Assembly (NCBI GenBank): GCA_964634875.1
Contig: CAZWKA010000001.1
Coordinates: forward strand, 101,600 to 165,599
Origin: an uncultured Gammaproteobacteria bacterium
Lineage (GTDB): Bacteria > Patescibacteriota > Patescibacteriia > Magasanikbacterales > GWA2-37-8
Direction of reading: 5' to 3'
Length of the DNA stretch: 64,000 bases
Position 1 is the stretch's first letter; each line of letters begins with the position of its first letter. Shown here piece after piece: positions 19,372 through 57,861 of the stretch. Below the pieces are notes generated by a model that ran no database searches, was not told the DNA's origin, and worked only from the letters and a program-made list of their open reading frames with translations. The position numbers and the translations under genes are program-made.

Positions 19372-19473
19372 AACAAAGTACTTTACGCTAAAAGTCTATT
19401 CTTGTCAAACCTAAAAGGTTTTTTGACAAATTTTTTTGTTAGTTCCATTATACGAACTAATAGGGAGACGACA

Positions 19474-39489: not shown

Positions 39490-40314
39490 ATGTTAATCAA
39501 GAGTAAAAAAGAAATCGCCCTCATCGCTGAAGGCGGAAAATTAATGGGTGAAATCTTGAGCGAGCTCAAAGTGTTGTGTAAGCCAGGCATGTCAACGCAT
39601 ACCATTGATCTTCTGGCTGAGAAAAAAATTCTCGCCGTTGGCGGCAAACCGGCTTTTAAAGGCTACACCACTCACGCCACTGACATTCCGTTTCCGGGAA
39701 CGATTTGTGCTTCGGTGAACACCGATCTTGTTCATGCTATTCCCCGTAAAGATGTCATCCTCAAAGATGGTGATATTTTTACGATTGATATTGGTATGGA
39801 ATACCCAGCGGGAAACAGTAAGCGCGGCCGCGGTTTTTTTACCGATACAGCAATTACTTTTTCAATTGGCGAGATTCCCCCCAAGACCAAAGAATTGCTC
39901 CGGGTTACCAAAGAAGCGCTTGAAGTTGGAATGCGGGCGGCAAAGCCTGGTAACAGTGTTGCGAGTATTGGTAAAGCAGTTGAATCGTATGTAAAAAGCC
40001 AGGGTACGTATGGTGTGGTGCGTGATTTGGTTGGGCATGGTGTTGGTCACGAAGTTCACGAGCAGCCGAATATTCCAAACTATTATGACCCGGGGTTGGA
40101 GTCAATTATCTTGAAGCCGGGTATGGTGATTGCTATCGAACCAATGATCTCGATCAGTAAAGAGCATCGGGTAGTAGCCAAGCCCGATGGTTGGACGATC
40201 GCTATGCGCGACAATGCGCTCTCGGCTCATTTTGAGCACACACTTGTGATTACCGCGAAGGGGAATGAGGTGGTGACGAGACGGCCGGGGGAGAGTAAAG
40301 AGGTACTTTGGTAA
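39490..40314 (+). CDS. map: methionine aminopeptidase type I
   Basis: 274 aa. Pita-bread fold with metal ligands in DIGMEY, VGHGVGHEVHE and IEPMIS. Confidence 0.93.
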   Translation: MLIKSKKEIALIAEGGKLMGEILSELKVLCKPGMSTHTIDLLAEKKILAVGGKPAFKGYTTHATDIPFPGTICASVNTDLVHAIPRKDVILKDGDIFTIDIGMEYPAGNSKRGRGFFTDTAITFSIGEIPPKTKELLRVTKEALEVGMRAAKPGNSVASIGKAVESYVKSQGTYGVVRDLVGHGVGHEVHEQPNIPNYYDPGLESIILKPGMVIAIEPMISISKEHRVVAKPDGWTIAMRDNALSAHFEHTLVITAKGNEVVTRRPGESKEVLW

Positions 40315-40316
40315 AT

Positions 40317-40766
40317 GCCAAAATCCTAATTTCAAATGACAAATAAAATGTCAAAGGCTCAAAATCAAAAGTATGATTTGGAAGAGCGAACCGCACAGTT
40401 TGGGGAAGAAGTAATCCGCTTTCTTCAGAAACTAAATAAAGATATAGTTACGTCTCCTTTAATTAGTCAACTTGTTAGATCGGCTACGAGCATTGGTGCT
40501 AATTATTGTGAGGCGGATTGTGCGGAATCAAGAAAAGATTTTGAATATAAAATAGGAATTTGTAAAAAAGAGTCTAAAGAAACAAAGTATTGGTTTAGAA
40601 TGCTGGCGACAGCTTTGCCTCAAGAAAAAGAAAAATGCCGTGAGCTCTGGAAAGAATGCAATGAATTTAACTTGATATTTTCAGCGATTATCAGAAACTC
40701 TCGTAAAAATAAAAATTAGAGCTTGGGATTTTTGTTTGACATTTGAAATTAGGATTTTGACATTTC
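40317..40766 (+). mobile_element. IVS-like cassette: four-helix-bundle ORF bracketed by ~24-bp inverted repeats (AAAATCCTAATTTCAAATGACAAA / TTTGACATTTGAAATTAGGATTTT)
   Basis: The left repeat (40317-40344) overlaps the ORF start. The right repeat (40731-40766) lies just past the stop. 23 of 24 positions are complementary. A related empty repeat pair is at 54277-54326. Confidence 0.5.
40336..40719 (+). CDS. four-helix-bundle protein (23S rRNA intervening-sequence protein family, TIGR02436-like)
   Basis: 127 aa. QLVRSATSIGANYCEA matches the family signature (xLxRSAxSIxxNIAEG). K/E-rich helical composition. Confidence 0.7.
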   Translation: MTNKMSKAQNQKYDLEERTAQFGEEVIRFLQKLNKDIVTSPLISQLVRSATSIGANYCEADCAESRKDFEYKIGICKKESKETKYWFRMLATALPQEKEKCRELWKECNEFNLIFSAIIRNSRKNKN

Positions 40767-40769
40767 ATT

Positions 40770-41165
40770 ATGAATATTCTCGCCCTCGATTATGGCCGTA
40801 AACGCATTGGTGTTGCCTGGGTAGATACTGGGATCAATGTTGTCTTGCCGCTTGGAGTGATTGAAAACACTGGCGAAGCTGTTTTTACAAAACTTGCGGA
40901 TTTGATAAAAAAAGAAAATGCAGACACGGTGGTTATTGGTTTGCCTACGGGGATGGATGGCAGTGAAAATGAAAACACTAAAAATATTCGAGCTTTTGGT
41001 GAAAAACTAGAAAAGTCAATTAGTACTCCAATCGTTTTTGTTGATGAACGTTTTTCTTCGCGCCAAGCAGATGCCATGGGTCAAGGGGTGAGCCGGGATG
41101 AGAAGTCGGCGATGGTGATTTTGGACAGTTACCTTGAGAGCGTAAGGCGAAAAGCTAAAAATTAA
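40770..41165 (+). CDS. ruvX: Holliday-junction resolvase-like nuclease YqgF/RuvX
   Basis: 131 aa. ILALDYGRKRIGVAW, VVIGLPTGMDGSEN, FVDERFSSRQA. Confidence 0.85.
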   Translation: MNILALDYGRKRIGVAWVDTGINVVLPLGVIENTGEAVFTKLADLIKKENADTVVIGLPTGMDGSENENTKNIRAFGEKLEKSISTPIVFVDERFSSRQADAMGQGVSRDEKSAMVILDSYLESVRRKAKN

Positions 41166-41233
41166 AAATAGCAGAGTCGCCGCGGCGACACGACAGTTTT
41201 AAATTTTTCGTTGTAAGCTTTTAGTTTTTACAC

Positions 41234-41962
41234 ATGTTATCCATCGTCCTCAAACGCCACGACTTCCGGGAAAGCGACCAGTTCATCACTCTGTTTACCG
41301 ACGAGTCTGGCAAGCGTGAAGCCTTGGCGCGTGGTGTTAAAAAAATTACGAGCAAACTTTCGGCTTACCTGACGCCGTTTTTTATTATTGAAACAGAATT
41401 AGTGCCGGGCAAGGAAACCGATCTTTTGATCATGGCCCAGCCGTACCAGGTTTTTCGCAACATTCCTGTTGATTTTGAAAAGATGTCGGTGGTAGGGTAT
41501 GCTGTGCAGTTGGTTGATGCGCTCACCGTACTCAAGCACCCGGAACCACGGATTTTTTCGCTCCTTGCAAGTTTTTTAGCGGCTTGTGACGGGGGTGGTC
41601 ATGACTCCGAGACTGTAGTTGCCAGCTTTACGCTTAAACTGCTTGCCCTGCTGGGGTGGCAGCCAGAACTGATGAAATGCCTTGTTTGCGGCAAGGTTTT
41701 GGGTAACGAACCTGGTCAATTTAGTGTGGCCGAAGGAGGGGTGCGGCATGCGACGTGCCCGAGTGTACGGCAACCTGTCGCCGGAGTGCCTGATGTCTTT
41801 CTATCATCTGCCGATAGAATTATTTTTCAAAAATTATTGACTGGCTCGTGGGATGAGCAGGTTAAAAAGGTTTCAGAACAAATCCTTAGTTTGTCGTATG
41901 TATATTTTTTGTACCATCAGCAGGGCTCCACTAAGATCGGCCGTTTTAGATTGACAGTCTAA
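41234..41962 (+). CDS. recO: DNA repair protein RecO
   Basis: 242 aa. OB-fold N-terminus (VLKRHDFRESDQFITLFT). Zinc motif CLVCGK ... HATCPS. Confidence 0.8.
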   Translation: MLSIVLKRHDFRESDQFITLFTDESGKREALARGVKKITSKLSAYLTPFFIIETELVPGKETDLLIMAQPYQVFRNIPVDFEKMSVVGYAVQLVDALTVLKHPEPRIFSLLASFLAACDGGGHDSETVVASFTLKLLALLGWQPELMKCLVCGKVLGNEPGQFSVAEGGVRHATCPSVRQPVAGVPDVFLSSADRIIFQKLLTGSWDEQVKKVSEQILSLSYVYFLYHQQGSTKIGRFRLTV

Positions 41963-42092
41963 GCTGGTTGTGGTAGGTTGAATTTTGTTTTCAGTACGTG
42001 GTGGAAGAAAAAAGTATCTTTTGCCACTGGCCTAAAATCGCGCGGAGGGCGCGAAATAGGGCTAGCGGTCTACAATCAAGAGGAGACCCTTC

Positions 42093-42464
42093 ATGAAGAG
42101 CACCTGGTTACTTCCTTTGCTTTTTGGCTTTGGCTGTAGGGCGGCGCCGCTGCCCATCTCTGATAACCCGGTGGCTGTCAGGGAGACAGTGGCGAGCTGC
42201 GAGTCGCCGCAGCGTACGTGGTCGGACTGCGCTGTGGCCTGTGTCCGCAAGGTGAATCTGGATCACGAGTACGACCCGGCGATCGACCTCTGCCGGCGAC
42301 AGCACCCCGACAACGTCAAGGGTGTGGTGGCTTGTCTCAACGACAAAGTCCCCGACTACACCGCCGCCTTCCGCGCCTGTACCAAGGACGACGGCTGCGA
42401 CAAAATCCGGGAGAACCATCCCGGCTGCTTCGGGCCTGAGGCCGTGAACCTGCCTTCGAGCTAG
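42093..42464 (+). CDS. GC-rich secreted Cys-rich protein (single copy of a ~90-aa 8-Cys module)
   Basis: 123 aa with a signal peptide. Cys spacing SCESPQRTWSDCAVACV ... CRRQ ... ACLND ... ACTKDDGCDKIRENHPGCFGPE is shared with both halves of the next ORF. High GC3. Confidence 0.55.
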   Translation: MKSTWLLPLLFGFGCRAAPLPISDNPVAVRETVASCESPQRTWSDCAVACVRKVNLDHEYDPAIDLCRRQHPDNVKGVVACLNDKVPDYTAAFRACTKDDGCDKIRENHPGCFGPEAVNLPSS

Positions 42465-42642
42465 TCTCGGAACAACTGCAGCTTCCTTTTGACCTGGAGC
42501 CGACACTGTCGGCTCCAGTACTGTTTAAAATTAGCCGCTGACATTTTGGGAATAGTCATTAGTCGATATAGTTTCGTATAATGACTGGTTCTAAGGCGCA
42601 TGTGCTGCGTTGTCGAAGCCAGGGTTTTTATCGGAGGGAATC

Positions 42643-43263
42643 ATGTGGAAATTATACACCGGATTGTTGGTGGTTGCTGCTGGCTGTACCTCGCTGGCAA
42701 ATGTTCAGCGGCTGCGACCAGATACGCCGGTTGAGCCGTGTCACGAGGTGCAAAAACGCTACGGCGATTGCAGTCTGCTGTGTGCACAAAAGGCAGATCC
42801 TACCCAAGCAACCAATGCTGTGCTCGACAGTTGTGGCGAGAAATTCAGTGAGAGCATTGATCGGATGTTGGCTTGTTACGAAGCGGAGGCTCCGGAACAA
42901 GCGGTCGCTTACCGTTCGTGCATGCAAGACAGCGGTTGCACGAACGTCCGAGAAAGTCGGGCCAGCTGTTTTGGAGAAGGTGTGCCAACAGGTATAGCTG
43001 TCCAAGGTGATGGTCGCGATTACGAATCATGCCGAGAGGTTGAGGTGGCGTACAATGCCTGTGCGCTGAGCTGTGCTGAGCGGATTGATCCCGATGGTCC
43101 GACAGCCGATTTAATAAAGCGTTGTGCACGTGAGCTACCACCGGACACCTGTTATCGCGAGGGTAGCCCAAAAGCGCCCCAGTTCATGTGGTGCCTAAAA
43201 GCGAATGGGTGTATGGTGCGCCGCACCTTGCGTCCCGAGTGCTTTGTTCCGACTGGTGAGTAG
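42643..43263 (+). CDS. GC-rich Cys-rich lipoprotein (two tandem copies of the same 8-Cys module)
   Basis: Start at ATG 42643 with SD GGAGGGA. Lipobox AAGCT. Repeat 1 is EPCHEVQKRYGDCSLLCAQ ... CGEKF ... ACYE ... CMQDSGCTNVRESRASCFGEG. Repeat 2 is ESCREVEVAYNACALSCAE ... CARE ... CYRE ... CLKANGCMVRRTLRPECFVP. Confidence 0.55.
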   Translation: MWKLYTGLLVVAAGCTSLANVQRLRPDTPVEPCHEVQKRYGDCSLLCAQKADPTQATNAVLDSCGEKFSESIDRMLACYEAEAPEQAVAYRSCMQDSGCTNVRESRASCFGEGVPTGIAVQGDGRDYESCREVEVAYNACALSCAERIDPDGPTADLIKRCARELPPDTCYREGSPKAPQFMWCLKANGCMVRRTLRPECFVPTGE

Positions 43264-43433
43264 GACAGTTCACGATATCTTCGTCCTAATTAGAGAGCCG
43301 ACAAACGTCGGCTCTCATATTGTTTTTGTATTAAAAAAACCACGTTAACAGCGTGGAAGATGGAAGTGTTGGATTAAGTTCTCCCGCCCCAAGAAAGTGT
43401 TGGGACGGGAGAACTTATGGGTGAAAGGAGCGC

Positions 43434-44420
43434 TTATTCGATGTAGCGGTGGGTATCAAAGCCCTCCGGCAGTTCGATCTCATCCAGGTGGAGGAAGGCA
43501 ACTATCGCGATGCGCAGCGCATCGGGGTGAAGTTGCTTGGGCTGCGGAACCTGGACAACACCGTGGTACAAGGGCTTCAGCCGGCCGCCGGTCAAGAGGA
43601 AGGGTTTGCAGGCGTTGAAGAGAAGGGGGCGGTTCGGCTCTGAACTGATCGGTACCCACTCATACGGCTTGCAGGGGTTGAGCCCGGGCGGATGGGGTGT
43701 CGTCAGAACATGGTCCAGATGTTCGCCGCGGTCGTCATGAAGCGCTTCCAGAGCATGTCGTGGTTGCGCGCCTTGCAGACCGGGCCCGCTTTCGTAGGCC
43801 GCATAGGTGAATGCCGAGCGATCGTTATGTCTGCCACCGATTTCGCCCGTAGTATCTTTTCGACGGCCTGTATAACCGAGAATCCGTATCACATCAAAAT
43901 TGTCTCGACCCTCTCGCCCGACCAAGGGAGTCATCTGCGTGCCCAACAAATCATCAAGCTCGCGCACGATTCCACGTGCATGATCTTGAAACCGTCGGAG
44001 CAATGACTGGCAGCTGAAGAGTAACCGCCGATGTTCTCTGAGGAATTCGGGGTTGAACTGGGTCAGCTTGTCGAACAGGGGAGCGCGGAAGTGGAACGTC
44101 TTTTTGTGATCCTTCTCCCGCTCAGGATTCGTTGGATCCGGTTGGCCAACAGATTCCCAGAACCCAGTATCCCAGTCTGGGGGCTGGCCAGGCTTTGAGA
44201 TCATATTGAATGCCCAAGCTCTCGGTTCCTTGGGGGGATTGTCGATCAAGTCCAGAAAATCCCTGACGATCAACGGAATGAGGTCGTCCGTTCTGAGTTC
44301 AACGCGCGTGATTCGGTCGCGGAGAAGTTCTTGTGCGTGGGCTCGATTCCGTGCAAGGTCCATTGTCATGGGCACACTCCTTCTAACTCGCCAGTATAGC
44401 CGAGCCAAATATTTTTGCAA
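43434..44420 (-). CDS. 2-oxoglutarate/Fe(II)-dependent oxygenase-like protein (IPNS/ACCO-type HxD...H)
   Basis: 328 aa. HNDRSAFTYAAYESGPGLQ resembles the HxD ... GLQV strand. YEWVPISSEPNRPLLFNA ... LYHGVV resembles WxxVxPxPxxxVVNxGD ... HRV. Moderately GC-rich. Confidence 0.45.
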   Translation of the reverse strand: MQKYLARLYWRVRRSVPMTMDLARNRAHAQELLRDRITRVELRTDDLIPLIVRDFLDLIDNPPKEPRAWAFNMISKPGQPPDWDTGFWESVGQPDPTNPEREKDHKKTFHFRAPLFDKLTQFNPEFLREHRRLLFSCQSLLRRFQDHARGIVRELDDLLGTQMTPLVGREGRDNFDVIRILGYTGRRKDTTGEIGGRHNDRSAFTYAAYESGPGLQGAQPRHALEALHDDRGEHLDHVLTTPHPPGLNPCKPYEWVPISSEPNRPLLFNACKPFLLTGGRLKPLYHGVVQVPQPKQLHPDALRIAIVAFLHLDEIELPEGFDTHRYIE

Positions 44421-44574
44421 CTCTATTTTCCATTTATTTTTTATGCAGTGGGTATATAAAAATAAAAACAGCCTTTTGAAAAAGCTGTTTTTAAGGGAGG
44501 CCGACGGTGGTATCAGCAGGAGTCAGCCGTTTGAATGAGCGTTGTTAGGTGTGTGGTTCTTGGTCTCTTGGGTG

Positions 44575-45123
44575 CTACTCGCATCCCCACGACGTGTCGC
44601 CTTGCCACCCGGCGAAGCGGGTGTCGTCCGTGTCGCCCCGCACCTCCTGGGTGGGCGGCTCCTTCGGCTCGTTGCAGGTGAAGCGGCATTCGGCCTCAAT
44701 GTGCACATCCGGCTTCGTGAACATGTGCATGTCGCGCCGCTCACCAGTCTTCTTGTTGACGGCGACGGCGCTCGAAATCATCTGGGGGTGGGTAGTGAGC
44801 TTGTAGGCGGTCGCGCCCTCGCAGAACGGGATCGGATTCGGGTTGCAGAGGGCGTAGAAGGTTCCTGCTGGCGATCGTGAGATCTCGAGGATGTAGACCT
44901 TCTGATCCTTGTTCGGGGCGGGCGGCACATTGCAGGCGAAGCTCTTGCCGCCGTCATTGTTCGCTAGCACCACCTCCGGCTCAGAAGACCCCTCCAGGAA
45001 GGCTGAGTTCGTAGTATCGAGTGGGTGCTCCGTCGCCACGACTGCTTCTCGCTGCAAGACCGGCGCGGCGCATGCGCCCGCCATCAACGCTGACACTGCC
45101 ATCCAATTACGCATGCTGGTCAT
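44575..45123 (-). CDS. GC-rich secreted Cys-containing hypothetical protein
   Basis: 182 aa. Signal peptide MTSMRNWMAVSALMAGACAAPVLQ. Six further Cys. A minus-strand CTATCTTGACA motif lies upstream at about 45188-45201. Confidence 0.5.
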   Translation of the reverse strand: MTSMRNWMAVSALMAGACAAPVLQREAVVATEHPLDTTNSAFLEGSSEPEVVLANNDGGKSFACNVPPAPNKDQKVYILEISRSPAGTFYALCNPNPIPFCEGATAYKLTTHPQMISSAVAVNKKTGERRDMHMFTKPDVHIEAECRFTCNEPKEPPTQEVRGDTDDTRFAGWQGDTSWGCE

Positions 45124-45271
45124 GAACGTACCTCCTTGAGTGCGCTGGGCGGTGTGCCCAGCGCAGGAAGTATACTTAACACATTTTTAGAGAATGTCAA
45201 GATAGTTCACAGATAATTTTCCACTTGCCTTTTTGGCTAAAAAGGGCTACGCTAAGCCAGTGCTATGTTAC

Positions 45272-45308
45272 AAGTACTTAGTACTTAGTACTTAGTACTT
45301 GGTACTTA
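45272..45308. repeat. tandem heptamer array (AGTACTT)x5, each unit containing the palindromic hexamer AGTACT
   Basis: AGTACTTAGTACTTAGTACTTAGTACTTGGTACTTAC, about 25 nt upstream of asnS. Confidence 0.7.
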
Positions 45309-45332
45309 CAACTTACTACTCGTTTTAACCGT

Positions 45333-46631
45333 ATGTCCTCAATCTGCCTTTCCAAAAATCTCCACGAACACATCGGTGAAGAAGTCGTTATTCGCGGTTG
45401 GCTTTATAATAAACGTTCCAGCGGTTCGATCGCTTTTTTGGAAGTCCGTGATGGTTTTGGTTGGGTGTCGGCCGTCGCTTCTAAAAGCGCAGTGCCCGAG
45501 AGTGTCTGGGACGCTATTGAAAAACTGACCCAGGAATCCTCGCTCACGCTGAAGGGTTTGGTTAAAGTGCACCCGAAGCGTGCTAATGAGTATGAGGTTG
45601 AGGTGCGAGATGTTGAGATCATCCAGCTCGCTACCGAATATCCAATTGCCAAGAAAGAACATGGCCCGGATTTTTTGATGGAGAACCGCCACTTGTGGCT
45701 CCGGAGTAAACAACAGTGGGCAATTTTGCGTGTGCGCGACGCCATTATTATGGCCATCAACGAATATCTACATCAGGAAAATTTTATCAAAGCCGATAGC
45801 CCGATTTTTACACCCAATGCCTGCGAAGGGACGACGACTCTTTTTGCTGTACCGTATTTTGATTTAGGCACGGCCTATTTATCCCAATCTGGGCAGTTGT
45901 ATATCGAAGCAGCGATTGCCTCGGTGGGGCGCTGTTATGATTTTGGTCCAGTTTTTCGAGCGGAAAAAAGTAAAACCAAACGTCATCTCACTGAATTTTG
46001 GATGATGGATGCCGAAGGTGCCTTTGTTGAACATGAAGAAAATTTGCAAATTCAAGAAGGATTGGTGCGCCATATCGTGCGTTATTGTTTGGAACACTGT
46101 AAACAAGAGTTGGCTATTTTGGAACGCGACACTGCCAAGCTCGCACAGGCTGACGCACCGTTCACGCGCTACACGTATGACCAGGCGATTGTAAAATTAA
46201 ACGAACTTGGGTCTGATATTAAATATGGTGAAGACTTGGGCAACGATGATGAGGGGCTTTTGACCAAAGACAGTGTGGTGCCGGTCTTTATCGAAAAATG
46301 GCCCAAGGGTATTAAGCCGTTTTATATGAAACGCGACCCGAGTAACCCCGAACTAGTCCTGAATGATGACCTGATTGCGACCGATGGTGGGGGAGAGTTG
46401 ATTGGGGGGTCACAGCGTGAAGAAGATGTTGACGTGCTCATTGAACGTATTAAGCACGAAGGGCTCAACATGGAAGATTATGAATGGTACCTCGACCTGC
46501 GTCGCTATGGCAGCGTCCCACATTCTGGCTTTGGCATCGGCCTCGAGCGGGCGGTGCGCTGGATTACGGGTGTCGAGCATATTCGGGAGTGTATTCCGTT
46601 CCCACGGACGATTGGCCGTTTAAAACCATAA
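45333..46631 (+). CDS. asnS: asparaginyl-tRNA synthetase (class IIb)
   Basis: 432 aa. N-terminal OB anticodon-binding domain. Class II motifs FRAE and GGSQRE. C-terminal GLERAVRW and FPRTIGRLKP. The length fits AsnRS rather than AspRS. Confidence 0.85.
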   Translation: MSSICLSKNLHEHIGEEVVIRGWLYNKRSSGSIAFLEVRDGFGWVSAVASKSAVPESVWDAIEKLTQESSLTLKGLVKVHPKRANEYEVEVRDVEIIQLATEYPIAKKEHGPDFLMENRHLWLRSKQQWAILRVRDAIIMAINEYLHQENFIKADSPIFTPNACEGTTTLFAVPYFDLGTAYLSQSGQLYIEAAIASVGRCYDFGPVFRAEKSKTKRHLTEFWMMDAEGAFVEHEENLQIQEGLVRHIVRYCLEHCKQELAILERDTAKLAQADAPFTRYTYDQAIVKLNELGSDIKYGEDLGNDDEGLLTKDSVVPVFIEKWPKGIKPFYMKRDPSNPELVLNDDLIATDGGGELIGGSQREEDVDVLIERIKHEGLNMEDYEWYLDLRRYGSVPHSGFGIGLERAVRWITGVEHIRECIPFPRTIGRLKP

Positions 46632-46890
46632 AATTGATAAGCAAAAAAATCCCTCTAAAAAAGGGATTTTTTTGCTTAGTATAGCCAAAAAAACACGTGG
46701 ATAACTAGGGGCGAGTCTATCTTGACAACAGTCCGGTTTTGTGCTAGGGTCAGTAGTACTCGATTTTGAGTATAGCTTTTTGAAAAATAAGGCCTTGAGG
46801 ATGGGTACGAGCTTATTTAGCTATAAATAGGCTGCTATCCCGCCTCGAGACCTTCAACGTTCCAGTCTATCAACGTTCCAGTCCATAGGA

Positions 46891-47934
46891 GTGCAAGTCA
46901 TGAAGAACTCTCGTTTCCCGAACGTCCTCGTCCTCGCCCTGGGGCTGCTCGCCCTGGGTGCGAACTCGGCCAGCGCCGAGGAGCACTTCACTGGCCCCTA
47001 CCAGGACGTCACGCGCGCCGTCGTGCCCGACAAGCCCGCCGCCCCCAACTACAAGGAGATGGGCGAGAGCCTGTCGTCCTGCACGCCGCTCTACGGCGAC
47101 GCCGAGTGCCGCAAGCGCCTCGGCCTGCCCGCCTCGGCCGCCCCCGTCCCCGCCGCGCCGTCCGCCACCCAGAAGCCCACCGCCCCCGGCACCAAGGTCG
47201 TGAACAACAACCGCGTCGTCGCCGGCGGCAGCAAGTCCGTCGGCTCGGCGGCCCGCGCCACGGGCCTCAGCGAGGCCATCAGCGGCCGCGGGATCTTGGG
47301 CAGGGGCGGCAAGTACTTCGGGTTCGGCATCTACGTGCCCATCACCATGCTCCGCGGCTACGATGGCTTCGACGCCCGCCAGGCGCCGGTGCTCGGCGGC
47401 CTCGGACTCATCCTGCGCGGCGAGATGTTCAGCATGCTCGGCCTGCCCATCGGCTGGCAGATCTACGGCGGCTGGGAGAAGGGGTCAGTGCTGACGGTGC
47501 GCCAGGTCGACCTCGCCAAGGGCGAGATCAACGAGGCCTCCGGCGGCAACAACGCCGACCATCTCACCATCGGTGCTGCCCCGACCATCGGCCTGGGCCC
47601 GTTCAAGGCCTTCCTCGGCTACGCCTACCGCTACCGCCTCTCCAGCGCGACCGGCCCCAGCGATGACAAGCTCGTCGTCGTTCCCTCGGCGTCCGGGCAC
47701 GCCTTCGAGATCGGTGGCCGTGCTGACCTGTTCGGCGGCAGCGTCTCCATCTCCGCCCTGGTCGTGCCGGGCTGGGGGGAGACCTTCTACCCCGACTCCA
47801 AGGATCACCCCGGCGCGCTGAAGCTCAACCTGCCGAGCCTCGGCGACCGCATGTTCCCGGGCAAAGCGGGAGATCTCGTCCAGACGAACGAGAGGCTGAT
47901 CCTCCTCCAGCTCAGGATCGCCTTCTTCGGCTAG
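46891..47934 (+). CDS. very GC-rich secreted Ala/Pro/Gly-rich protein
   Basis: 347 aa. Signal peptide MKNSRFPNVLVLALGLLALGANSASA. PAAPxAT linker, Gly-rich C-terminal domain. GC3 is near-saturated. Upstream CTATCTTGACA + 17 + TAGGGT (46714-46750). Confidence 0.55.
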   Translation: MQVMKNSRFPNVLVLALGLLALGANSASAEEHFTGPYQDVTRAVVPDKPAAPNYKEMGESLSSCTPLYGDAECRKRLGLPASAAPVPAAPSATQKPTAPGTKVVNNNRVVAGGSKSVGSAARATGLSEAISGRGILGRGGKYFGFGIYVPITMLRGYDGFDARQAPVLGGLGLILRGEMFSMLGLPIGWQIYGGWEKGSVLTVRQVDLAKGEINEASGGNNADHLTIGAAPTIGLGPFKAFLGYAYRYRLSSATGPSDDKLVVVPSASGHAFEIGGRADLFGGSVSISALVVPGWGETFYPDSKDHPGALKLNLPSLGDRMFPGKAGDLVQTNERLILLQLRIAFFG

Positions 47935-48070
47935 ACTGCCGCTATCCACACCCATCCCCGCCGCCGGCGCACCACTCGTCTTCCAAGACTTGAGTGGTGC
48001 GCCGCGGCTCTCCAATTAAATTTCTAAGGTTCCTTAGAGGTTTTGAGGAGAGAGAAACTTCTTAAAAAAA

Positions 48071-48101
48071 GCCTGTCACCAATTGGTGGACAGGCTTTTT
48101 T
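48071..48101 (+). terminator. intrinsic terminator
   Basis: GCCTGTCACC AATT GGTGGACAGGC followed by TTTTTTA. Confidence 0.55.
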
Positions 48102-48184
48102 ATAAGCATTGACAACTTGGCTTAAATATGGTACCCCATAAGCTTCCCTGGTCAAAATAACCTTTTTCACCTAAAGGGGTGAAC

Positions 48185-48829
48185 ATGTACTTTGTCAGAC
48201 GTTGTGCTCGTTTTCTCGTGGTCGCTGTGGCTCTGGTTCCGTTGTTTAGTATTGCGGGTTGTAACTTCCTGCGCTGGAACAGCGGAGGGAGCCAAGGGGA
48301 CAAGCCGACCGGGAGCGACACGGTTGGTAGCAGCGGCTGTGAAGGCCGTGAGTTCTGTGATGACACCACCGGCGACACAGAGGCCCAGGCAGCCTGTAAA
48401 GCCTACCGCACGTGTCTTGCAGTAACAGCTGTCGACGATCCGATGGGCTTGGGTGTGACCAAAAGCCCTGGGATTTCTGAGCCTGCTGGTACTGCCGCGG
48501 GTGCCAATTGCAATGCGGTTAAAGAGTGTCCCAAAAGTCCGACAGGCAACCACGTGTTCCGGCCAGACGATCCGCCTGAGTTTACCTATGAGGTAGACGA
48601 TGACGGTAGTTGCACCAGGACCAAGATGTTCCACTGCATCTATTGTGGTACTACCTACTCACATGCCGCGCCTCCTGAGCAGGTCACCTTGTCGGACATG
48701 CTGCGCGACCATGAGGCGGCTCTGCGACAGCAGAGCCCTGCAGCAGGGCATATCGCTTCGGTCATGCAGACTGCTGAGATGGTCGCCCGGCGACTGAAGT
48801 TGCCTGGGGTTTGTTCGCCAAGCCGCTAG
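48185..48829 (+). CDS. GC-rich lipoprotein, paralog pair 1 member a
   Basis: ATG 48185 follows SD AAAGGGG. Lipobox IAGCN. Shares CEGREFCDDT, AACKAYRTCLAVTAVDDP, CNAVKECPKSPTGNHVF and CIYCGTTY with 48957-49703. Confidence 0.6.
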   Translation: MYFVRRCARFLVVAVALVPLFSIAGCNFLRWNSGGSQGDKPTGSDTVGSSGCEGREFCDDTTGDTEAQAACKAYRTCLAVTAVDDPMGLGVTKSPGISEPAGTAAGANCNAVKECPKSPTGNHVFRPDDPPEFTYEVDDDGSCTRTKMFHCIYCGTTYSHAAPPEQVTLSDMLRDHEAALRQQSPAAGHIASVMQTAEMVARRLKLPGVCSPSR

Positions 48830-48956
48830 ACAGCATCCTCATTCTTTTCCATCCAACCTATCGTAGCGGCCAGTAGCGCCGCTCTTCTGTGCCACGCATG
48901 AGCAGTTCGTGCTGGGCAGCGAAGAATAGACATTTTAAAAAATGGAGGGAGCCAAG

Positions 48957-49703
48957 ATGATTCGAAGACACTCGCGTTACTTCGACCGTTGCGCGCCAGG
49001 CGTCCTTGGTTTGGCACTTGTCCTTTTTGGCGGTTGCAACTTTATCGGCAAGCTCGGAGGCGCCTCCGGAGACAAAGGGGGTGCCGAAGCGCCGGCTGCG
49101 AATCTGCGCTGTGAGGGACGGGAGTTCTGCGACGACACCAGCACCGACCCCGAAGCGCGCGACGCCGCGAAAGCCGCGTGTGAAGCGTACCAGAAGTGTC
49201 TTGCTACTGTTGCCGTTGACGATCCACAGAACTTGGGTGCGGCAATGAACCGTGGTGGTTCATTAGGTTCAGGGCCTGCTGATGAGGCTCGGTGTGATGC
49301 GGTTCAAGAATGTCCGCATAGTCCAACTGGTAATCATATCTTCAAGGGTGAAACGCCGCCCAAGTACATGTATACCGTCGACAAAGATGGCGCCTGCTGG
49401 AAGCAGGAAAAGATGGATTGCTCCGTGTGCGGCACGACCTACTGTGGCTATGCGCCGAAAATCAAAATCGGCCACAACGAGCTCCGACGTTCTCGCGCGG
49501 AAGCCTTCCAGAAAAGCAATGATGCCAACGCCGCCTACCAGCGAGCAATGGCGGATGGTGTGACTGGGGACGCCTTATTCGCGTTCCAGTGGACGGCTGA
49601 GGTTGCACGGCAGTACTACACCGTTTTATTCGGCGCTTACGACACCGCCGAGACGTTTGCGATTGATCACGACAAGCCGTTTCCCTGTGCACCCATGGAG
49701 TAG
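48957..49703 (+). CDS. GC-rich lipoprotein, paralog pair 1 member b
   Basis: ATG 48957 follows SD GGAGGGA. Lipobox LFGGCN. CEGREFCDDT, AACEAYQKCLATVAVDDP, CDAVQECPHSPTGNHIF and CSVCGTTYCGY are conserved with 48185-48829. Confidence 0.6.
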   Translation: MIRRHSRYFDRCAPGVLGLALVLFGGCNFIGKLGGASGDKGGAEAPAANLRCEGREFCDDTSTDPEARDAAKAACEAYQKCLATVAVDDPQNLGAAMNRGGSLGSGPADEARCDAVQECPHSPTGNHIFKGETPPKYMYTVDKDGACWKQEKMDCSVCGTTYCGYAPKIKIGHNELRRSRAEAFQKSNDANAAYQRAMADGVTGDALFAFQWTAEVARQYYTVLFGAYDTAETFAIDHDKPFPCAPME

Positions 49704-49866
49704 TTCCTTCATCGATTCGTCCTGCTCAGGTGGTTGTTGAGCGGGTCGTAACCCTGCCGTTCTTACAACGGCTTTCTCATTCATAGTCTAAGTTTTTAGC
49801 TTGGAAGATGAGTCCAGAAAAAGCAGTTCGTTAAGACAATCAAAACCCAACAGCGAGGTGAATGTT

Positions 49867-50499
49867 ATGCCTATTCGTTCTTCAGCTTTGCTCTTCACGA
49901 TGCTGCTGGCAGGCTGTACCTGGTTGACCCAGAAGAATCCACAGCTGGAAGGCCAGTCCAACGGGTTGACCGGCCTGGTGGCTGGCGCCATTGCCGATAC
50001 CTTGATTGAAGGCCTGTCGCCATCGTGTACAGACACCGGAGCTTGCCAGGAAGATCCGAACGGGCAGCTGTGCAAGGAGTATCGCCAGTGTTTGCAGGCA
50101 GAGATTGACGGCTCGAAAACCGGTTTGGCTGCTGGCCCCATGCGCGGCGGCCGTCGCCGGGGCAAAGTTGCAGCGATCACTCCCGAAGGCGAAGCTTGTG
50201 ATACCGACACGTCCTGCCCGCATACCATGTTCAAACCCGGCACGCGAACGGTTAAAGTTTGGGTCGAGCCGCGCATACTTGGTAGTGGCGGAACCTATGG
50301 CCGGTGCTGGCAACAGGTTACGGCTATCTGCGCTGCGTGCGATCAGCCCGTTGGCTCCCCGCCAACTCCGGCTTCGGTTGAAGAAATCAAGAAGCTCAGC
50401 CAGATCATGTTTCCGGGTGACATCTGGAACGAAATTTTTATGGCGATGGTCAACCAAGGGGGTTGTTGGGACGAGCCCTGGGTTCCGGCTTTCCAGTAG
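49867..50499 (+). CDS. GC-rich lipoprotein, paralog pair 2 member a
   Basis: ATG 49867 follows SD GAGGTG. Lipobox LLAGCT. LIEGLSPSCTDTGACQEDPNGQLCKEYRQCLQAEIDG is paralogous to the N-terminus of the next ORF. Confidence 0.6.
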   Translation: MPIRSSALLFTMLLAGCTWLTQKNPQLEGQSNGLTGLVAGAIADTLIEGLSPSCTDTGACQEDPNGQLCKEYRQCLQAEIDGSKTGLAAGPMRGGRRRGKVAAITPEGEACDTDTSCPHTMFKPGTRTVKVWVEPRILGSGGTYGRCWQQVTAICAACDQPVGSPPTPASVEEIKKLSQIMFPGDIWNEIFMAMVNQGGCWDEPWVPAFQ

Positions 50500-50609
50500 C
50501 CCTGCCCCCCCACAAAAGCGGCCGAACAGGGTTCGGCCGCGCCCTTCAGTACTGTTCGCAAGTTTTACTTGCGCCCAGTAGTGAGTGACACCAATCCACG
50601 AGGTGCAAC

Positions 50610-51164
50610 ATGGTCAAAGTAGGAGTATGTTACAAGCCCACACTTGTCTTGATGTTGTTGTTGGGTGGTTGTAAGTGGTTAGTTACTCCAACAAATCCCG
50701 AGCTTGCCAATGCTGGCGGGGGTAGTTTTGGAGGCTTTGTTGGCGGTTTGATTGAAAAAGGTTTGCAGCCAACCTGTCAGCGACCCGAATCTTGCGATAG
50801 CGACCCTGATAGCCAAGAGTGCCGTGACTACCGCCAGTGCGTGGTGGATGAAATCAGGAATGGCGGTGGTTCTGCTGAGTCGTCGGGTAGTGGGGGATCA
50901 GATCCCGCTGCTCCCGGAGCTGCCTGTGGCACCGATGTCACGGACTCCCCGCCAGAAGACGAAGCGGAGGAGAAGGAAAAGGCTCGCTGTCCGGTTTGCG
51001 GAGGTCCGATGAAGCGTAAGTCGCGACCGATGGTCGTAGACTTTGGTGCAAATCCCTACCGCATGTGGCAGTACCAGTGCACGAACCGAGGTGTTTCGCG
51101 CGGCGGGCAGTTCGGTCACGGCGACTTTTCCGGTCGACGCTGGCCGCTCAAGCCCGCCGAGTAG
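50610..51164 (+). CDS. GC-rich lipoprotein, paralog pair 2 member b, with C4 zinc-ribbon-like motif
   Basis: SD GAGGTG. Lipobox LLGGCK. LIEKGLQPTCQRPESCDSDPDSQECRDYRQCVVDEIRNG. CPVCGG ... CTNRG. Followed by a hairpin at 51192-51221. Confidence 0.6.
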   Translation: MVKVGVCYKPTLVLMLLLGGCKWLVTPTNPELANAGGGSFGGFVGGLIEKGLQPTCQRPESCDSDPDSQECRDYRQCVVDEIRNGGGSAESSGSGGSDPAAPGAACGTDVTDSPPEDEAEEKEKARCPVCGGPMKRKSRPMVVDFGANPYRMWQYQCTNRGVSRGGQFGHGDFSGRRWPLKPAE

Positions 51165-51392
51165 CACCATCCCCATCCCTGCCTTGACAAGCCAACGTTG
51201 ATCGCATCTGCGATCCGTTGGCTGCTTATCCTGCACGCTAGTAAGTTGGCGTACGGGATAAAAAGAAAATCACTCGGAAACGAGTGATTTTCTTTTTCTA
51301 AGGCATTAAGGCCTATCTTGACGATAGTCGGTTTTCGTGATACCACGTTCTGTACAATCATTTTTGCCCTTGGGGGCAGGAGAAGAAATCCA

Positions 51393-51908
51393 ATGAAGCG
51401 ACGACTTTTGGGTTCTGTTGTCATGTTTTTAGCTTGTGTGACAGGTTGTGCTGCGTCATCGAGCTATCAGTCAGAGCCTGCTTCAACAGGTGTTGAGCCA
51501 ACTAATCCCCATCCCGCCTATTGGGGCCAGCTCCAGGCAGGGTTGGTTGATACAGGTCCGGTGCTGGTTGATCGAAGCTGTGACGACGCGGACGTAGTTG
51601 GTGCTGCGTCTGCGGCCAGCGACGAGGAGATCCCAGCGTGTGTCCACCCGCTCGCCCAGAATCCATGTCTCGTTGATAGTGAGGAGCAGTCGTATCAGCC
51701 TGACCCGGTTGGGGTTGGTGGTGAGGGCCGTTTCTTCGCCGGCCAGCGCTATGCGCTTGTTTTTGAGGTAAGCAAGGCGGTTGGCTGCCGGGCATCGTTG
51801 CGCTGGCTTTGTGGTACAAGTCGGGTTCTGCGGTGGACCAAGGTGGCGCGAGATCGCCTGCCACCCGAGCTCAATGAGTTGGCTACCCACATCGGCGCCT
51901 GCCAGTAG
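51393..51908 (+). CDS. GC-rich lipoprotein (fifth gene of the array)
   Basis: ATG 51393 follows SD AGGAGA. Lipobox VTGCA. Upstream CTATCTTGACG + 17 + TACCAC (51313-51346). Six further Cys. Confidence 0.55.
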   Translation: MKRRLLGSVVMFLACVTGCAASSSYQSEPASTGVEPTNPHPAYWGQLQAGLVDTGPVLVDRSCDDADVVGAASAASDEEIPACVHPLAQNPCLVDSEEQSYQPDPVGVGGEGRFFAGQRYALVFEVSKAVGCRASLRWLCGTSRVLRWTKVARDRLPPELNELATHIGACQ

Positions 51909-52025
51909 TAAGCTCGCTTCGCAGTGAGCCAACGTCGAGCAAACAGCTCGACGCCTTCCTCTACCTTCTGTTAGGGAATGTAGCGGAAGGCAAAAAAACC
52001 TGACCACAATGGTCAGGTTTTTTAT

Positions 52026-52982
52026 TTAAGGTTGGAGGGTGATGATTGCTACTTCCGGTGGGGTCAAAAAACGGATCGGCCCGCCAGACTCACTTACTCC
52101 GACGGTAGTAAATAATTTCTTACCATCAATCTCAGTCAGTCCGCGGTAATATTCAGGGCCTAGCTTCATGGCGGCATGCCCCAAGGGACCAATTATGGGC
52201 AACCAAATTTGCCCTCCGTGCGTATGCGCCGCCAGTGTTACTACTGGTTGGGTTTCGGTGTCTGGCCATAACAAGACCCCATCGGGATTATGGACAACCA
52301 AAATAAGTGGGGCAGTCTTGTTCCATTTTTTTAATTCATCAAAAGTATTCATCTCGCGGTAGACATCATCCATGCCAAACAAGCAAATTCTTTGCTCATT
52401 AATTTTTGGGCAACCTAGTTGGTCTTTAAGGAGTGTCAGCCCCATATCCTTCATTTTTTTCTCAACAACTGTCGACTGGTCGGCGGCCAGCTGCAGGCCG
52501 TAAGCGGCATACCCGTATTCGTGATTGCCCATGACATAGTATGTTGGGAAATGTTTGGGCAGTTCACGCAAGGGCTCTAGATATTCGGTTTCGTCCAAGC
52601 TGGTCCCGTGGTTGTAGACGTTGTCGCCAGCGATGACGACCATATCAGGTTTTGCCTCGATAATTTTGTTGACTACTTTTTGTGCCCAAGCTGCTTTTTT
52701 ATGTTCGCCGACATGGAGGTCTCCGATAAGGGCGATCCGAATTGATTTTTTGATGTCGGGAGTAGTAATTTTTTCTTCGTGGATAACTAATCGATTAATT
52801 TCAATAAAGCGCGCATCAAACGCCATAAGTATTCCACTGCCCAAGATTCCAATACAGCCCCAGGCAATAATTCGGTGGCGGCCTAAAAATACCGTTTTGC
52901 TTTTTTGGTCACGATAGAAAAAATAAATAAGAATTCCGGCAACGAGTACGTATCCGTAGAGTATGATGAGATACACATTCAT
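52026..52982 (-). CDS. membrane-anchored metallophosphoesterase (calcineurin-like)
   Basis: 318 aa with one N-terminal transmembrane helix. GDLHVG, GDNVYNHG and GNHEYG metal-binding motifs. Confidence 0.8.
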   Translation of the reverse strand: MNVYLIILYGYVLVAGILIYFFYRDQKSKTVFLGRHRIIAWGCIGILGSGILMAFDARFIEINRLVIHEEKITTPDIKKSIRIALIGDLHVGEHKKAAWAQKVVNKIIEAKPDMVVIAGDNVYNHGTSLDETEYLEPLRELPKHFPTYYVMGNHEYGYAAYGLQLAADQSTVVEKKMKDMGLTLLKDQLGCPKINEQRICLFGMDDVYREMNTFDELKKWNKTAPLILVVHNPDGVLLWPDTETQPVVTLAAHTHGGQIWLPIIGPLGHAAMKLGPEYYRGLTEIDGKKLFTTVGVSESGGPIRFLTPPEVAIITLQP

Positions 52983-53112
52983 AGAAAAGTGAAGCTACGC
53001 TCAAAGTATAACATACTTTAATTTTCCAAACGAGATTCCCCCCCCAACCTGTGTTCGTTTTTTCTTAAAAAGTAAAATAAATACAGCTCCCGGTTGGGGA
53101 GCTGTATTTATT

Positions 53113-53215
53113 TTGGTGCCCAGAGTGAGAAGCTCACGCGTCACTTCGTTCCTTCACGGCAACCTGCGGGTTTCCGTGTGCCTTCCACCGCAAGTAGGGA
53201 AATATTTCCCCTACC
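53113..53215 (-). other. degenerate duplicate of the tRNA-Leu 3' end (acceptor/T-arm-like, with CCA) followed by a structured ~90-nt segment
   Basis: On the plus strand, GGTGCCCAGAGTGAGAA (53115-53131) matches AGTGCCCAGAGAGAGAA at the 3' end of tRNA-Leu (53240-53256) at 16 of 17 positions. No cloverleaf can be drawn. Contains hairpins GTGAG-AAG-CTCAC and the perfect palindrome GTAGGGAAATATTTCCCTAC. Confidence 0.3.
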
Positions 53216-53240
53216 ACCCTTTGTTCGATTCTTATTTTAG

Positions 53241-53324
53241 TGCCCAGAGAGAGAATCGAACTCTCATGATGTCGCCATCGCGGGATTTTGAGTCCCGTGC
53301 GTCTACCAGTTCCGCCATCTGGGC
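53241..53324 (-). tRNA. tRNA-Leu (anticodon CAA), type II with long variable arm
   Basis: The reverse complement folds as acceptor GCCCAGA/TCTGGGC, D-arm GCGG-AACTGGTAG-ACGC, anticodon stem CGGGA/TCCCG with loop CTCAAAA, a 14-nt variable arm, T-arm GAGAG-TTCGATT-CTCTC, and discriminator A. Confidence 0.85.
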
Positions 53325-53488
53325 CTGAAAAATGCAAAGCGTAAAGTGAAAAGTGTAAAATACACATGTCGCAAAGCGACTCCTTTATTTTTAACTTTTC
53401 GTTTTTAGTTTTGCGCTTTAATAATAGTCCAATATTGTTTTTCTGTCAACGGTTATGCTATACTATGAATACTTTTATTATCCGTGGT

Positions 53489-54265
53489 ATGTCCGTCGTC
53501 ATTTCTGTCGTTAACCAAAAAGGAGGGGTTGGTAAGACCACAACGGCCGTTAATTTGGCTGCAGGTATTGCCGAAACCGGCAAATTTGTCTTGCTTGTGG
53601 ATCTTGATCCGCAGGGGAATGCGACGAGCGGTCTTGGTCTCAAAAATGAAGGTCTGGTGCGTGGCCTCTACCACGCCATCATGGGTCAAGAACGCCTCCA
53701 TGACGTTATTTCAAACACGGCGCATGCCGGTCTCCGGGTTGTGCCAGCTACGCCTGATCTAGCAGGCGCCAATGTGGAATTGGTTACGGTCGAAGGCCGC
53801 GAAACCAAACTTTCTGACATCCTCAGTGAAATCAAGCATGCGTACGATTACATTATTATCGACTGTCCGCCATCCCTGGGTATCCTTACGCTCAACGGTC
53901 TGGTTGCTGCGGACCATATCCTGATTCCGGTCCAAGCTGAATATTACGCCCTCGAAGGCTTGGGTCAACTCCTCAAAACCATCGAACTTGTTCGCGACAA
54001 TATCAAACCTGAGCTTAGTGTCCTTGGGGCAATTCTTACCATGTTTGACACCCGCAACCGTCTGAGCGAAGAAGTTTTACAAGAGTTGTATAAATATTTC
54101 CCCAACACCATTTTCCGCTCCGTCATTCCGCGCACTGTTCGCCTTGCCGAAGCCCCCAGTTATGGTAAGAGCATTTTCCATTACGAACCGAGTGGAAAAG
54201 CGGCGAAGGCGTATGAACGGTTAACCAGAGAAGTGCTTGAGTATTTTGACAGTAAAAATAGTTAG
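53489..54265 (+). CDS. soj: chromosome partitioning ATPase ParA/Soj
   Basis: Start set at ATG 53489 (MSVVISVVNQKGGVGKTTT, deviant Walker A), giving 258 aa. The track ORF extends 41 codons further upstream. Confidence 0.9.
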   Translation: MSVVISVVNQKGGVGKTTTAVNLAAGIAETGKFVLLVDLDPQGNATSGLGLKNEGLVRGLYHAIMGQERLHDVISNTAHAGLRVVPATPDLAGANVELVTVEGRETKLSDILSEIKHAYDYIIIDCPPSLGILTLNGLVAADHILIPVQAEYYALEGLGQLLKTIELVRDNIKPELSVLGAILTMFDTRNRLSEEVLQELYKYFPNTIFRSVIPRTVRLAEAPSYGKSIFHYEPSGKAAKAYERLTREVLEYFDSKNS

Positions 54266-57225: not shown

Positions 57226-57756
57226 CTAGTGGGGCTTGAGGGCAAGGTTCTGGGTGGCCGGCACCCGTCCCTCGCGGCCGTAGAAGTCGGGGCGCTCCTG
57301 GTCGCCGTAGCGGCGGCGCACGGGCATGTCGACGGGGGCGTGGTCACACTCCCGGGCCGGCGGCGTCTTGCGCGGGGTCTGGGGCGGCGGGGTGTCGAAG
57401 ACGACCTTGCCGTTCTCAATGCGGAAGTGGTACTGGGCCTGGCCGTGATAGGCGAAGAAGTGCCGCCCATCCGGGATCATGCGTGCCGTCGCCACACGCT
57501 GCGCCTTGTTGAGCGCGAGCTGGTGGGTGTGGCAGAGGCTGGACTCCTCACACGGCGTGCCATCCGACCAGATGCCGGGGCAGCGCTCGGGCGTCGCCTC
57601 GTCGTTGGCGAGGCGGACGAAGCGCCCGCCATCGTCCATCTTCACTATGTACCAGTGACCCTGGAACCAGAACCGCTTGCCGGCCCGGAAGTTGAGGCTG
57701 CGGGCGTGCCGGAAGGCAAGGTCGATGTCAGGCTGACTGTGGGGCTTGACGAGCAT
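57226..57756 (-). CDS. GC-rich hypothetical protein (no signal peptide)
   Basis: 176 aa with high GC3. Cys/His-containing (CPGIWSDGTPCEESSLCHTHQ). No match to a known motif. Confidence 0.4.
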   Translation of the reverse strand: MLVKPHSQPDIDLAFRHARSLNFRAGKRFWFQGHWYIVKMDDGGRFVRLANDEATPERCPGIWSDGTPCEESSLCHTHQLALNKAQRVATARMIPDGRHFFAYHGQAQYHFRIENGKVVFDTPPPQTPRKTPPARECDHAPVDMPVRRRYGDQERPDFYGREGRVPATQNLALKPH

Positions 57757-57806
57757 GGGAATCCTCCTCAGTGTACGTGGGTGCTGGCCCTGGGGAACCA
57801 GCTTGA

Positions 57807-57861
57807 ATCGGCGTGATTATGACCTAGTATGGACAGGATACTAGGTCATAATCACGCCGAT
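57807..57861. repeat. perfect 24-bp inverted repeat with 7-nt loop at the edge of a GC-rich segment
   Basis: ATCGGCGTGATTATGACCTAGTAT GGACAGG ATACTAGGTCATAATCACGCCGAT. Confidence 0.75.

Follow-up and report, generated by a model that had tools for sequence, protein, structure and literature searches.

A stretch of 64,000 nucleotides from a Patescibacteria genome (positions 101,600 to 165,599 of contig CAZWKA010000001.1, GenBank assembly GCA_964634875.1), which we call the window, carries four genes between RecO and asparaginyl-tRNA synthetase (AsnRS). Two of these, A and B, encode cysteine-rich putative lipoproteins, C encodes a predicted 2-oxoglutarate (2OG)- and Fe(II)-dependent oxygenase, and D encodes another putative lipoprotein. 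An earlier note on this DNA had proposed that the oxygenase hydroxylates the secreted proteins encoded beside it, or else that it is a small-molecule tailoring enzyme that was acquired together with them. Neither functional reading is supported: in relatives, the oxygenase occurs in the same slot without the cysteine-rich module. Overall, we think it probable that there is no enzyme-substrate coupling and that the variable slot between RecO and AsnRS houses accessory genes of two unrelated kinds.

The window covers a core region of a small genome, with genes for EF-G, EF-Tu, the ribosomal-protein operon, SecY, Adk, Map, RuvX, RecO, and AsnRS, as well as ParA/ParB, RelA/SpoT, TopA, DprA, Pth, and EngA. 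The loci that we retrieved with AsnRS belong to Candidatus Magasanikbacteria, which are part of the candidate phyla radiation (CPR, or Patescibacteria), and thereby assign the window to this lineage; the closest GTDB representative has an AsnRS that is 81% identical. RecO (41234-41962, plus strand) was recognized by the Pfam domains RecO_N and RecO_C, and AsnRS (45333-46631, plus strand) by tRNA-synt_2. Between them lie four open reading frames (ORFs), with A (42093..42464) and B (42643..43263) on the plus strand and C (43434..44369) and D (44575..45123) on the minus strand. The junction from RecO through A and B to C has a 100% match in an independent Logan assembly, and the fetched locus L002 is an independent assembly of the window's locus that is 100% identical.

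In at least five other loci of Magasanikbacteria (L003, L004, L006, L008, and L087), a homolog of the oxygenase lies in the slot between RecO and AsnRS and is convergent to RecO, and in a sixth (L025) it adjoins AsnRS. None of these loci has a gene with the cysteine-rich module. The homolog from L003 is 39% identical to C and directly adjoins RecO. In most representatives of the Magasanikbacteria, RecO and AsnRS are adjacent or have unrelated genes between them, which makes this a variable slot and the oxygenase a sporadic occupant of it. The identity to syntenic homologs is 26–33% for C, 32–42% for RecO, and 73–81% for AsnRS. Because the divergence of C is similar to that of RecO, these comparisons are compatible with vertical inheritance of the oxygenase along with loss from some lineages. 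A hidden Markov model (HMM) of the module matched nothing in the 86 fetched loci besides L002, which is the same locus. In other words, the genes were not seen together in any other genome among these loci, which the earlier note had named as an outcome that would count against its proposal.

More distant members of the oxygenase family stand alone in other contexts: beside S16, KhpA, and SMC (L088); near EF-G and a diversity-generating retroelement (L093); on a CPR-like contig; and on a contig that does not look like CPR. No conserved partner gene emerged across the family loci that we examined.

Some features beside these homologs deserve mention in their own right. In four relatives, a short hydrophobic ORF (52–91 amino acids) lies on the same strand just upstream of the oxygenase homolog (L004, 7671-7829; L006, 3419-3652; L008, 9628-9903 on the minus strand; L087, 5685-5849). 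The lipoprotein gene D occupies this place in the window. In L005, we considered whether a 123-amino-acid ORF beside the oxygenase homolog might be a cysteine-rich module, and rejected it. The retroelement beside the distant member near EF-G (RVT_1 and bAvd; L093, 5094-8405, and L094, 3580-6891) has an adjacent gene with a VWA domain, which may be its target.

The proposal that C hydroxylates aspartate, asparagine, or proline residues of the neighboring exported proteins draws on the closeness of the genes (within 3 kb), on their composition, which is atypical for all of them, and on two prolines that are invariant across the three copies of the module. But at least six other oxygenase loci lack the module, C runs toward A and B, and each gene is set off from the next by a terminator. 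C has neither a signal peptide nor a lipobox, has no Pfam match to AspH, P4H, or JmjC, and has structural neighbors that are mostly enzymes acting on small molecules or nucleotides. Furthermore, the module is all-alpha rather than EGF-like, and five further genes for cysteine-rich lipoproteins have no oxygenase beside them. With no sign of co-transcription in the sequence and no recurrent co-occurrence of the genes in the loci compared, we consider this proposal extremely unlikely. Because the hydroxylase-substrate module does not hold, no new post-translational system is indicated.

The transcription signals divide the interval gene by gene. After A there is a terminator-like hairpin (42494..42518, plus strand) with the sequence CTGGAGCCGACACTGTCGGCTCCAG and then a T-rich tail, followed by a sigma-70-like promoter for B (42553..42582, plus strand; TAGTCA, an 18-nucleotide spacer, and TATAAT, for 10/12 matches). 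The hairpin after B (43293..43316, plus strand) and the one after A have the stem core GAGCCGAC/GTCGGCTC in common, which suggests that the duplication behind the A and B units took in their terminators as well. C has its own hairpin (43340..43356, minus strand; CCACGCTGTTAACGTGG and then T7) and its own sigma-70-like promoter (44393..44420, minus strand; TTGCAA, a 16-nucleotide spacer, and TATACT). Another terminator-like hairpin, after D, separates D from C (44463..44493, minus strand). D is preceded by an extended -35 motif, CTATCTTGAC(A), at 45196..45205 on the minus strand, so that B, C, and D have one promoter-like site each. All four genes have ribosome-binding sites (GAGGAG for A, GGAGGG for B, AGAAGGAG for C, and AAGGAGG for D). 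By these signals, A, B, C, and D are separate transcription units.

These signals also bear on the length of the oxygenase. The convergent ORF described previously is present: taken mechanically, it runs from 43434 to 44420, starts with TTG, and encodes 328 amino acids. The true start is very probably the ATG at 44369, which gives 311 amino acids, because the homologs begin there, the ribosome-binding site AGAAGGAG lies 5' of this ATG, and the TTG at 44420 falls within the -35 hexamer TTGCAA. (For B, the best start is the ATG at 42643.)

The earlier note had described a further secreted cysteine-containing protein as driven by a shared promoter motif. The motif CTATCTTGAC does precede D but none of A, B, and C, and a comparison of k-mers turned up no promoter motif of 8 nucleotides or more that all four genes share. 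In the window, CTATCTTGAC(A/G) has four exact copies (at 24015, 45196 on the minus strand, 46717, and 51313); when up to one mismatch is allowed, there are nine hits, versus 2.45 expected. The exact copies are upstream of D and of the genes at 24100, 46891, and 51318, all of which are GC-rich accessory genes. CTATCTTGAC could be the site for a common regulator or sigma factor of the accessory set.

In an alternative reading, a high-GC donor supplied A, B, C, and D as one island, in which the oxygenase would be a small-molecule tailoring enzyme. The main argument for this reading is base composition. The core genes in the window are 42–51% GC, while A, B, C, and D are 62%, 55%, 56%, and 63% GC; these four, at 55–63% against about 46–48% for the core, form an interval that is bounded by core genes. 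Yet the GC content at third codon positions (GC3) varies widely among them, at 0.79, 0.52, 0.63, and 0.82, respectively. Also, the spacers, with their own promoters and terminators, return to host-like, AT-rich values. At the borders of the patch at 42-45 kb, we found neither an integrase nor a tRNA nor flanking direct repeats, and an Rfam scan of 40000-53500 returned nothing besides tRNA-Leu. No biosynthetic core genes lie nearby, and the oxygenase is alone in the slot in relatives whose AsnRS is 73–81% identical. Acquisition as a single island therefore seems rather improbable to us.

The patch with A–D is one of several. The window has a bimodal composition, with at least 18 accessory ORFs of 54–70% GC that occur singly or in short runs between highly conserved core genes. 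They fall into six patches: 6546-7310, 17758-19767, 23308-25018, 42093-45123, 46891-51908, and 57226-57816. The orthologs of the oxygenase are also GC-rich: in L001, L003, L004, L006, L008, and L088 they are 54–61% GC, with GC3 of 0.57–0.76, in flanks of 43–47% GC. This may reflect amino acid composition or repeated transfer.

The identification of C as an oxygenase depends on its family and on a structure model because the direct Pfam scan fails. The product of 43434-44420 matched no Pfam family even at E ≤ 1, so the proposed HMM search for PF03171 does not succeed with this protein at the gathering threshold or below it, and there was no match from NCBIfam or PHROGs either. A phmmer search of the PDB sequences returned noise (FliG, E about 1), and a word-indexed search for homologs returned C itself and one relative at 53% identity. 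An alignment of two oxygenase sequences had no match in GTDB representative genomes or in JGI metagenomes, and tblastn against plasmids had none for the gene. In contrast, when HMMER was run exhaustively against 1.84 billion representatives, it found 52 relatives at E ≤ 1e-3; two of them reach E ≤ 1e-30, and the others are 27–39% identical. PF03171 (2OG-FeII_Oxy) matches 38/51 family members at E ≤ 0.01 (best, 1.6e-11). Beyond PF03171, the Pfam scan of the family gave one stray match, with none to AspH (PF05118), P4H (PF13640), or JmjC, and no NCBIfam model matched any member. These relatives form a previously unnamed subfamily, of about 50 clusters at 50% identity, that appears to be centered on CPR bacteria.

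Eight residues (D87, K89, R162, Y166, H181, H269, R286, and F292) do not vary in the alignment of 51 family members, and conservation of D183 is at least 90%. The H-x-D (H-N-D in the window's protein), H, and R-x-S motifs of the family line up with their counterparts in solved 2OG oxygenases, and for H-x-D and H these include 3oox and 3on7. This gives the facial triad: the putative metal ligands are H181 (43827-43829), D183 (43821-43823), and H269 (43563-43565), all on the minus strand. R286 (43512-43514, minus strand) aligns with the arginine of the RxS motif of 3oox and is the putative basic residue that binds 2OG. The serine of this motif is replaced by alanine in the window's protein (R-I-A), while a relative, P0002, has R-T-S. 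When compared to the PDB, the family profile matched 3oox (5.5e-22), 3on7 (5.3e-20), and thymine dioxygenase (1.8e-16), and then GA2ox, the nucleotide halogenase AdaV (3.5e-10), EFE, and DAOCS.

The AlphaFold2 model of C is confident (predicted local distance difference test [pLDDT] of 89.5 and predicted template modeling score of 0.88) and has the double-stranded beta-helix fold. A Foldseek search of the PDB gave 214 matches at E ≤ 1e-3, and the best 50 are all 2OG oxygenases, with a probability of 1.00 and template modeling (TM) scores of 0.5–0.65. The neighbors include EFE, SO_2589 (3on7), AdaV, DAOCS, T7H, GA oxidases, ANS, and IPNS, with E values of 4e-10 to 3e-8. A His-rich insertion of ~33 amino acids (residues ~203–236) has low pLDDT and is found in no relative of C. 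From the family profile, the PF03171 matches of the relatives, and the structural neighbors, the identification of C as a divergent IPNS/DAOCS/ACCO-like 2OG-Fe(II) oxygenase is supported, much as its HxD...H arrangement had originally suggested. A literature search for Magasanikbacteria together with 2-oxoglutarate found no publication.

What might this enzyme act on? T7H, which acts on a nucleobase, and AdaV, which acts on a nucleotide, are its strongest characterized sequence neighbors, but this is only a lead as to the substrate. An information-processing macromolecule, such as a ribosomal protein, a translation factor, or a nucleic-acid base, could also be considered. In six loci, the oxygenase gene is next to RecO at the end of a cluster of ribosomal-protein, SecY, Adk, and Map genes; family members are found beside S16/KhpA in L088 and EF-G in L093; and the family profile matches thymine dioxygenase and AdaV. 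But in the tiny genomes of CPR bacteria, most neighbors are housekeeping genes anyway. In every case the oxygenase gene forms a unit by itself, convergent or divergent, and most relatives lack it. Also, the known hydroxylases of ribosomal proteins and translation factors are of the JmjC/cupin or PHD type and are not IPNS-like. We regard a macromolecular substrate as quite unlikely.

Turning to the cysteine-rich genes, A encodes a 123-amino-acid putative lipoprotein with one helical module of eight cysteines (residues ~28–118), and B encodes a 206-amino-acid putative lipoprotein with two such modules in tandem (residues ~25–115 and ~121–206). The modules, of ~90 amino acids, are where they had been placed in the earlier note. 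Their cysteines are at positions 36, 46, 50, 67, 81, 96, 102, and 112 of A; at 33, 43, 47, 64, 78, 93, 99, and 109 in the first module of B (B1); and at 130, 140, 144, 161, 170, 184, 190, and 200 in the second (B2). The spacing of 10,4,17,14,15,6,10 is identical in A and B1, and B2 has 10,4,17,9,14,6,10. All eight cysteines align, and one glycine, one arginine, one phenylalanine, and two prolines are also invariant, for an overall identity of ~26%. By BLASTP, the similarity is well beyond chance, with E values of 5e-14 (A/B1), 2e-12 (B1/B2), and 9e-8 (A/B2). The modules end in CF[G/V]: the CF of the ending that was first described, CFG(P)E, is kept, but the rest is not strictly so.

The AlphaFold2 model of the module from A is all-alpha, with six helices and a pLDDT of 85.7, and was obtained from an alignment of just the three paralogs. 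Foldseek found no significant match for this model (best E=3.7 in the PDB and E=2.2 in BFVD), and the module's profile had no match among PDB sequences. Scans of A, B, and D with Pfam, NCBIfam, and PHROGs gave no family, and the module had no significant match to the known families of cysteine-rich extracellular domains in Pfam or to PDB folds. Within the window, the module HMM found no copies beyond those in A and B. A word-indexed search of 5.8 billion protein clusters returned B and D themselves and nothing else, and B had no match in JGI metagenome contigs or, by tblastn, in plasmids. Because these searches need shared words or close identity, describing A, B, and D as ORFans means that they have no close relative. 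As judged from the model, the 8-cysteine module is a new helical lipoprotein domain, presumably disulfide-rich, for which no sequence or fold relatives were found.

Could A, B, and/or D be chance ORFs? GC-rich DNA in this region does yield long ORFs in several frames, and the three proteins have no homologs outside this genome and no family match. On the other hand, the module is present in three copies that are 26–32% identical with their eight cysteines in register, and three sequences sufficed for a confident helical model. GC3 is well above the overall GC content in A and D. Each gene has a ribosome-binding site, a signal peptide with a lipobox, and a terminator, and B and D also have promoter-like sites. 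For D, the case is weaker, as it consists of these signals and GC3. All told, we believe it very unlikely that these are chance ORFs.

The three predicted proteins have signal patterns of lipoproteins, in keeping with the suggestion that A and B are exported. A lipobox had been ascribed to one of the two, but A (WLLPLLFGFGC, Cys15), B (YTGLLVVAAGC, Cys15), and D (MAVSALMAGAC, Cys18) all match a PS00013-type pattern, and all have a lysine or arginine within the first seven residues. We take this pattern to be [LIVMFWSTAG]2-[LIVMFYSTAGCQ]-[AGS]-C, with the cysteine at position 15–35, a positive n-region, and a hydrophobic h-region. D is a 182-amino-acid ORFan with seven cysteines and is unrelated to the 8-cysteine module.

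The lipobox pattern also occurs in six further genes. Five of these are consecutive ORFan genes at 48179-51908 (plus strand), which encode 9–13 cysteines each, are 57–58% GC, and have no oxygenase beside them. They include two pairs of paralogs (48179/48942, 42% identical; 49801/50610, 36% identical). Another cysteine-rich lipoprotein gene is at 23308-23907, between fusA and tuf. In the relatives, the stretch from AsnRS to tRNA-Leu holds no such genes.

Two other GC-rich genes in the window attracted our attention. The 347-amino-acid ORF at 46891-47934 (plus strand) has a signal peptide of the signal peptidase I type, a linker rich in proline and alanine, and a glycine-rich C-terminal half with alternating residues and a terminal FFG, so that its C-terminus looks like that of a beta-barrel. 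No match was found in Pfam, NCBIfam, PHROGs, or plasmids. Its composition is strikingly foreign, at 70% GC and a GC3 of 0.94 in a genome that is roughly 46–48% GC. The other gene, at 6546-7310 (minus strand; 254 amino acids, 59% GC, GC3 of 0.70), has a sub-threshold match to Pfam's FA_hydroxylase (E 9.5e-6; 26.5 bits versus a cutoff of 31). With it, the accessory layer of this CPR genome may have two O2-dependent enzymes.

Taken further, the 8-cysteine module, as a new disulfide-stapled fold, and at least 15 other GC-rich ORFan genes (with GC3 up to 0.94), placed individually among the core genes of this roughly 46% GC genome and many of them behind the shared promoter element CTATCTTGACA, might constitute a co-regulated surface repertoire that was recently imported from a high-GC donor, possibly the symbiont's host. 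We think this is unlikely, but if it were true, the islands would be at once a means and a record of the association with the host, and the oxygenase and the FA_hydroxylase-like gene at 6546-7310 would join an imported, O2-related accessory layer.

Two smaller observations were made nearby. A tandem heptamer, AGTACTT, is present in ~5 copies at 45266-45310, immediately 5' of the start codon of AsnRS. And between Map and RuvX, at 40336-40719 (plus strand), there is an AT-rich ORF of 127 amino acids (34% GC), which by eye resembles a four-helix-bundle protein of the type found in 23S rRNA intervening sequences. It is not at that position in L004 or L006.

If the slot is shared by unrelated accessory genes, as we favor, then C would be an older resident, whose position and orientation were kept in several relatives and which was lost from most of them. 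By homology, it would be a stand-alone cytoplasmic enzyme that holds Fe(II) via H181, D183, and H269, binds the C5 carboxylate of 2OG with R286, and oxidizes a soluble substrate, perhaps a small molecule, a nucleobase, or a nucleotide. A, B, and D would take the Sec pathway out of the cytoplasm and then be lipidated and anchored at the lipobox cysteine. At the cell surface, each ~90-amino-acid module of A and B would fold into a helical bundle, presumably stapled by four disulfides. The three genes would belong to the larger set of GC-rich genes for cysteine-rich lipoproteins that have been inserted one at a time or in tandem between core genes of the window. By analogy with exported cysteine-rich proteins described in other CPR bacteria, they are most plausibly variable cell-surface or host-interaction proteins. 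We are less confident of these specific roles than of the lack of coupling.

Several points weigh against this account. All four genes in the interval are GC-rich, which would also fit their residence together on one acquired patch. GC-rich orthologs of the oxygenase in several lineages could likewise mean repeated transfer into one hotspot instead of descent. The word-indexed search with B failed to return A, so relatives near or below ~28% identity, the level between A and B, would escape it. Finally, the putative lipidation and disulfides were read from sequence patterns.

The oxygenase subfamily, if its activity is as predicted, would mean that O2-dependent chemistry recurs in CPR organisms that are usually called anaerobic fermenters. 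The 8-cysteine lipoprotein domain adds to the poorly understood surface proteomes of CPR bacteria, which are thought to contact hosts. And a CPR genome with bimodal GC content, in which single ORFan lipoprotein genes lie between core genes, may aid the study of gene gain in streamlined symbionts.

How do these proteins compare to known systems? The closest solved structures to C are CC_0200 (3oox) and SO_2589 (3on7), both of which are uncharacterized, followed by T7H, AdaV, EFE, and DAOCS. C shares with the IPNS/DAOCS/ACCO-like class the double-stranded beta-helix and the alpha/beta region at the N-terminus, along with the HxD...H triad and the arginine of RxS; unlike the members of this class, it is below detection by Pfam, has alanine in place of the serine and a His-rich insertion, and lies outside any biosynthetic cluster. 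AspH, which acts on EGF domains, and the prolyl 4-hydroxylases are in the same superfamily and have the Fe(II)/2OG hydroxylation chemistry in common with C. AspH and the collagen prolyl 4-hydroxylases act in the secretory pathway and carry targeting signals, whereas C lacks a signal peptide and is close to these enzymes neither in sequence nor in structure, and the candidate substrates beside it are helical rather than EGF-like.

Like the module of A and B, saposin-like proteins, CFEM domains, and vanabins are all-alpha, have 80–100 amino acids and 6–9 or more cysteines, and are located outside the cytoplasm. The cysteine pattern of the module differs from theirs, it has no Pfam match, and the Foldseek hits to the saposin-like chain of AOAH (E=6) and to Vanabin2 (E=8.8) were not significant. 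Within the Patescibacteria, where genomic islands are abundant (PMC12455944), the nearest parallel is in Peribacteria, whose cysteine-rich exported proteins vary among strains, average about 1,655 amino acids, and have been proposed to act at the surface or in attachment (PMC4736985). Those proteins are very large, while the lipoproteins A and B are small and consist of one or two copies of a ~90-amino-acid, 8-cysteine helical module with no match in Pfam, the PDB, or BFVD. What the two groups have in common is a CPR host, signal peptides, a high cysteine content, the lack of a functional annotation, and variability at the level of strains.

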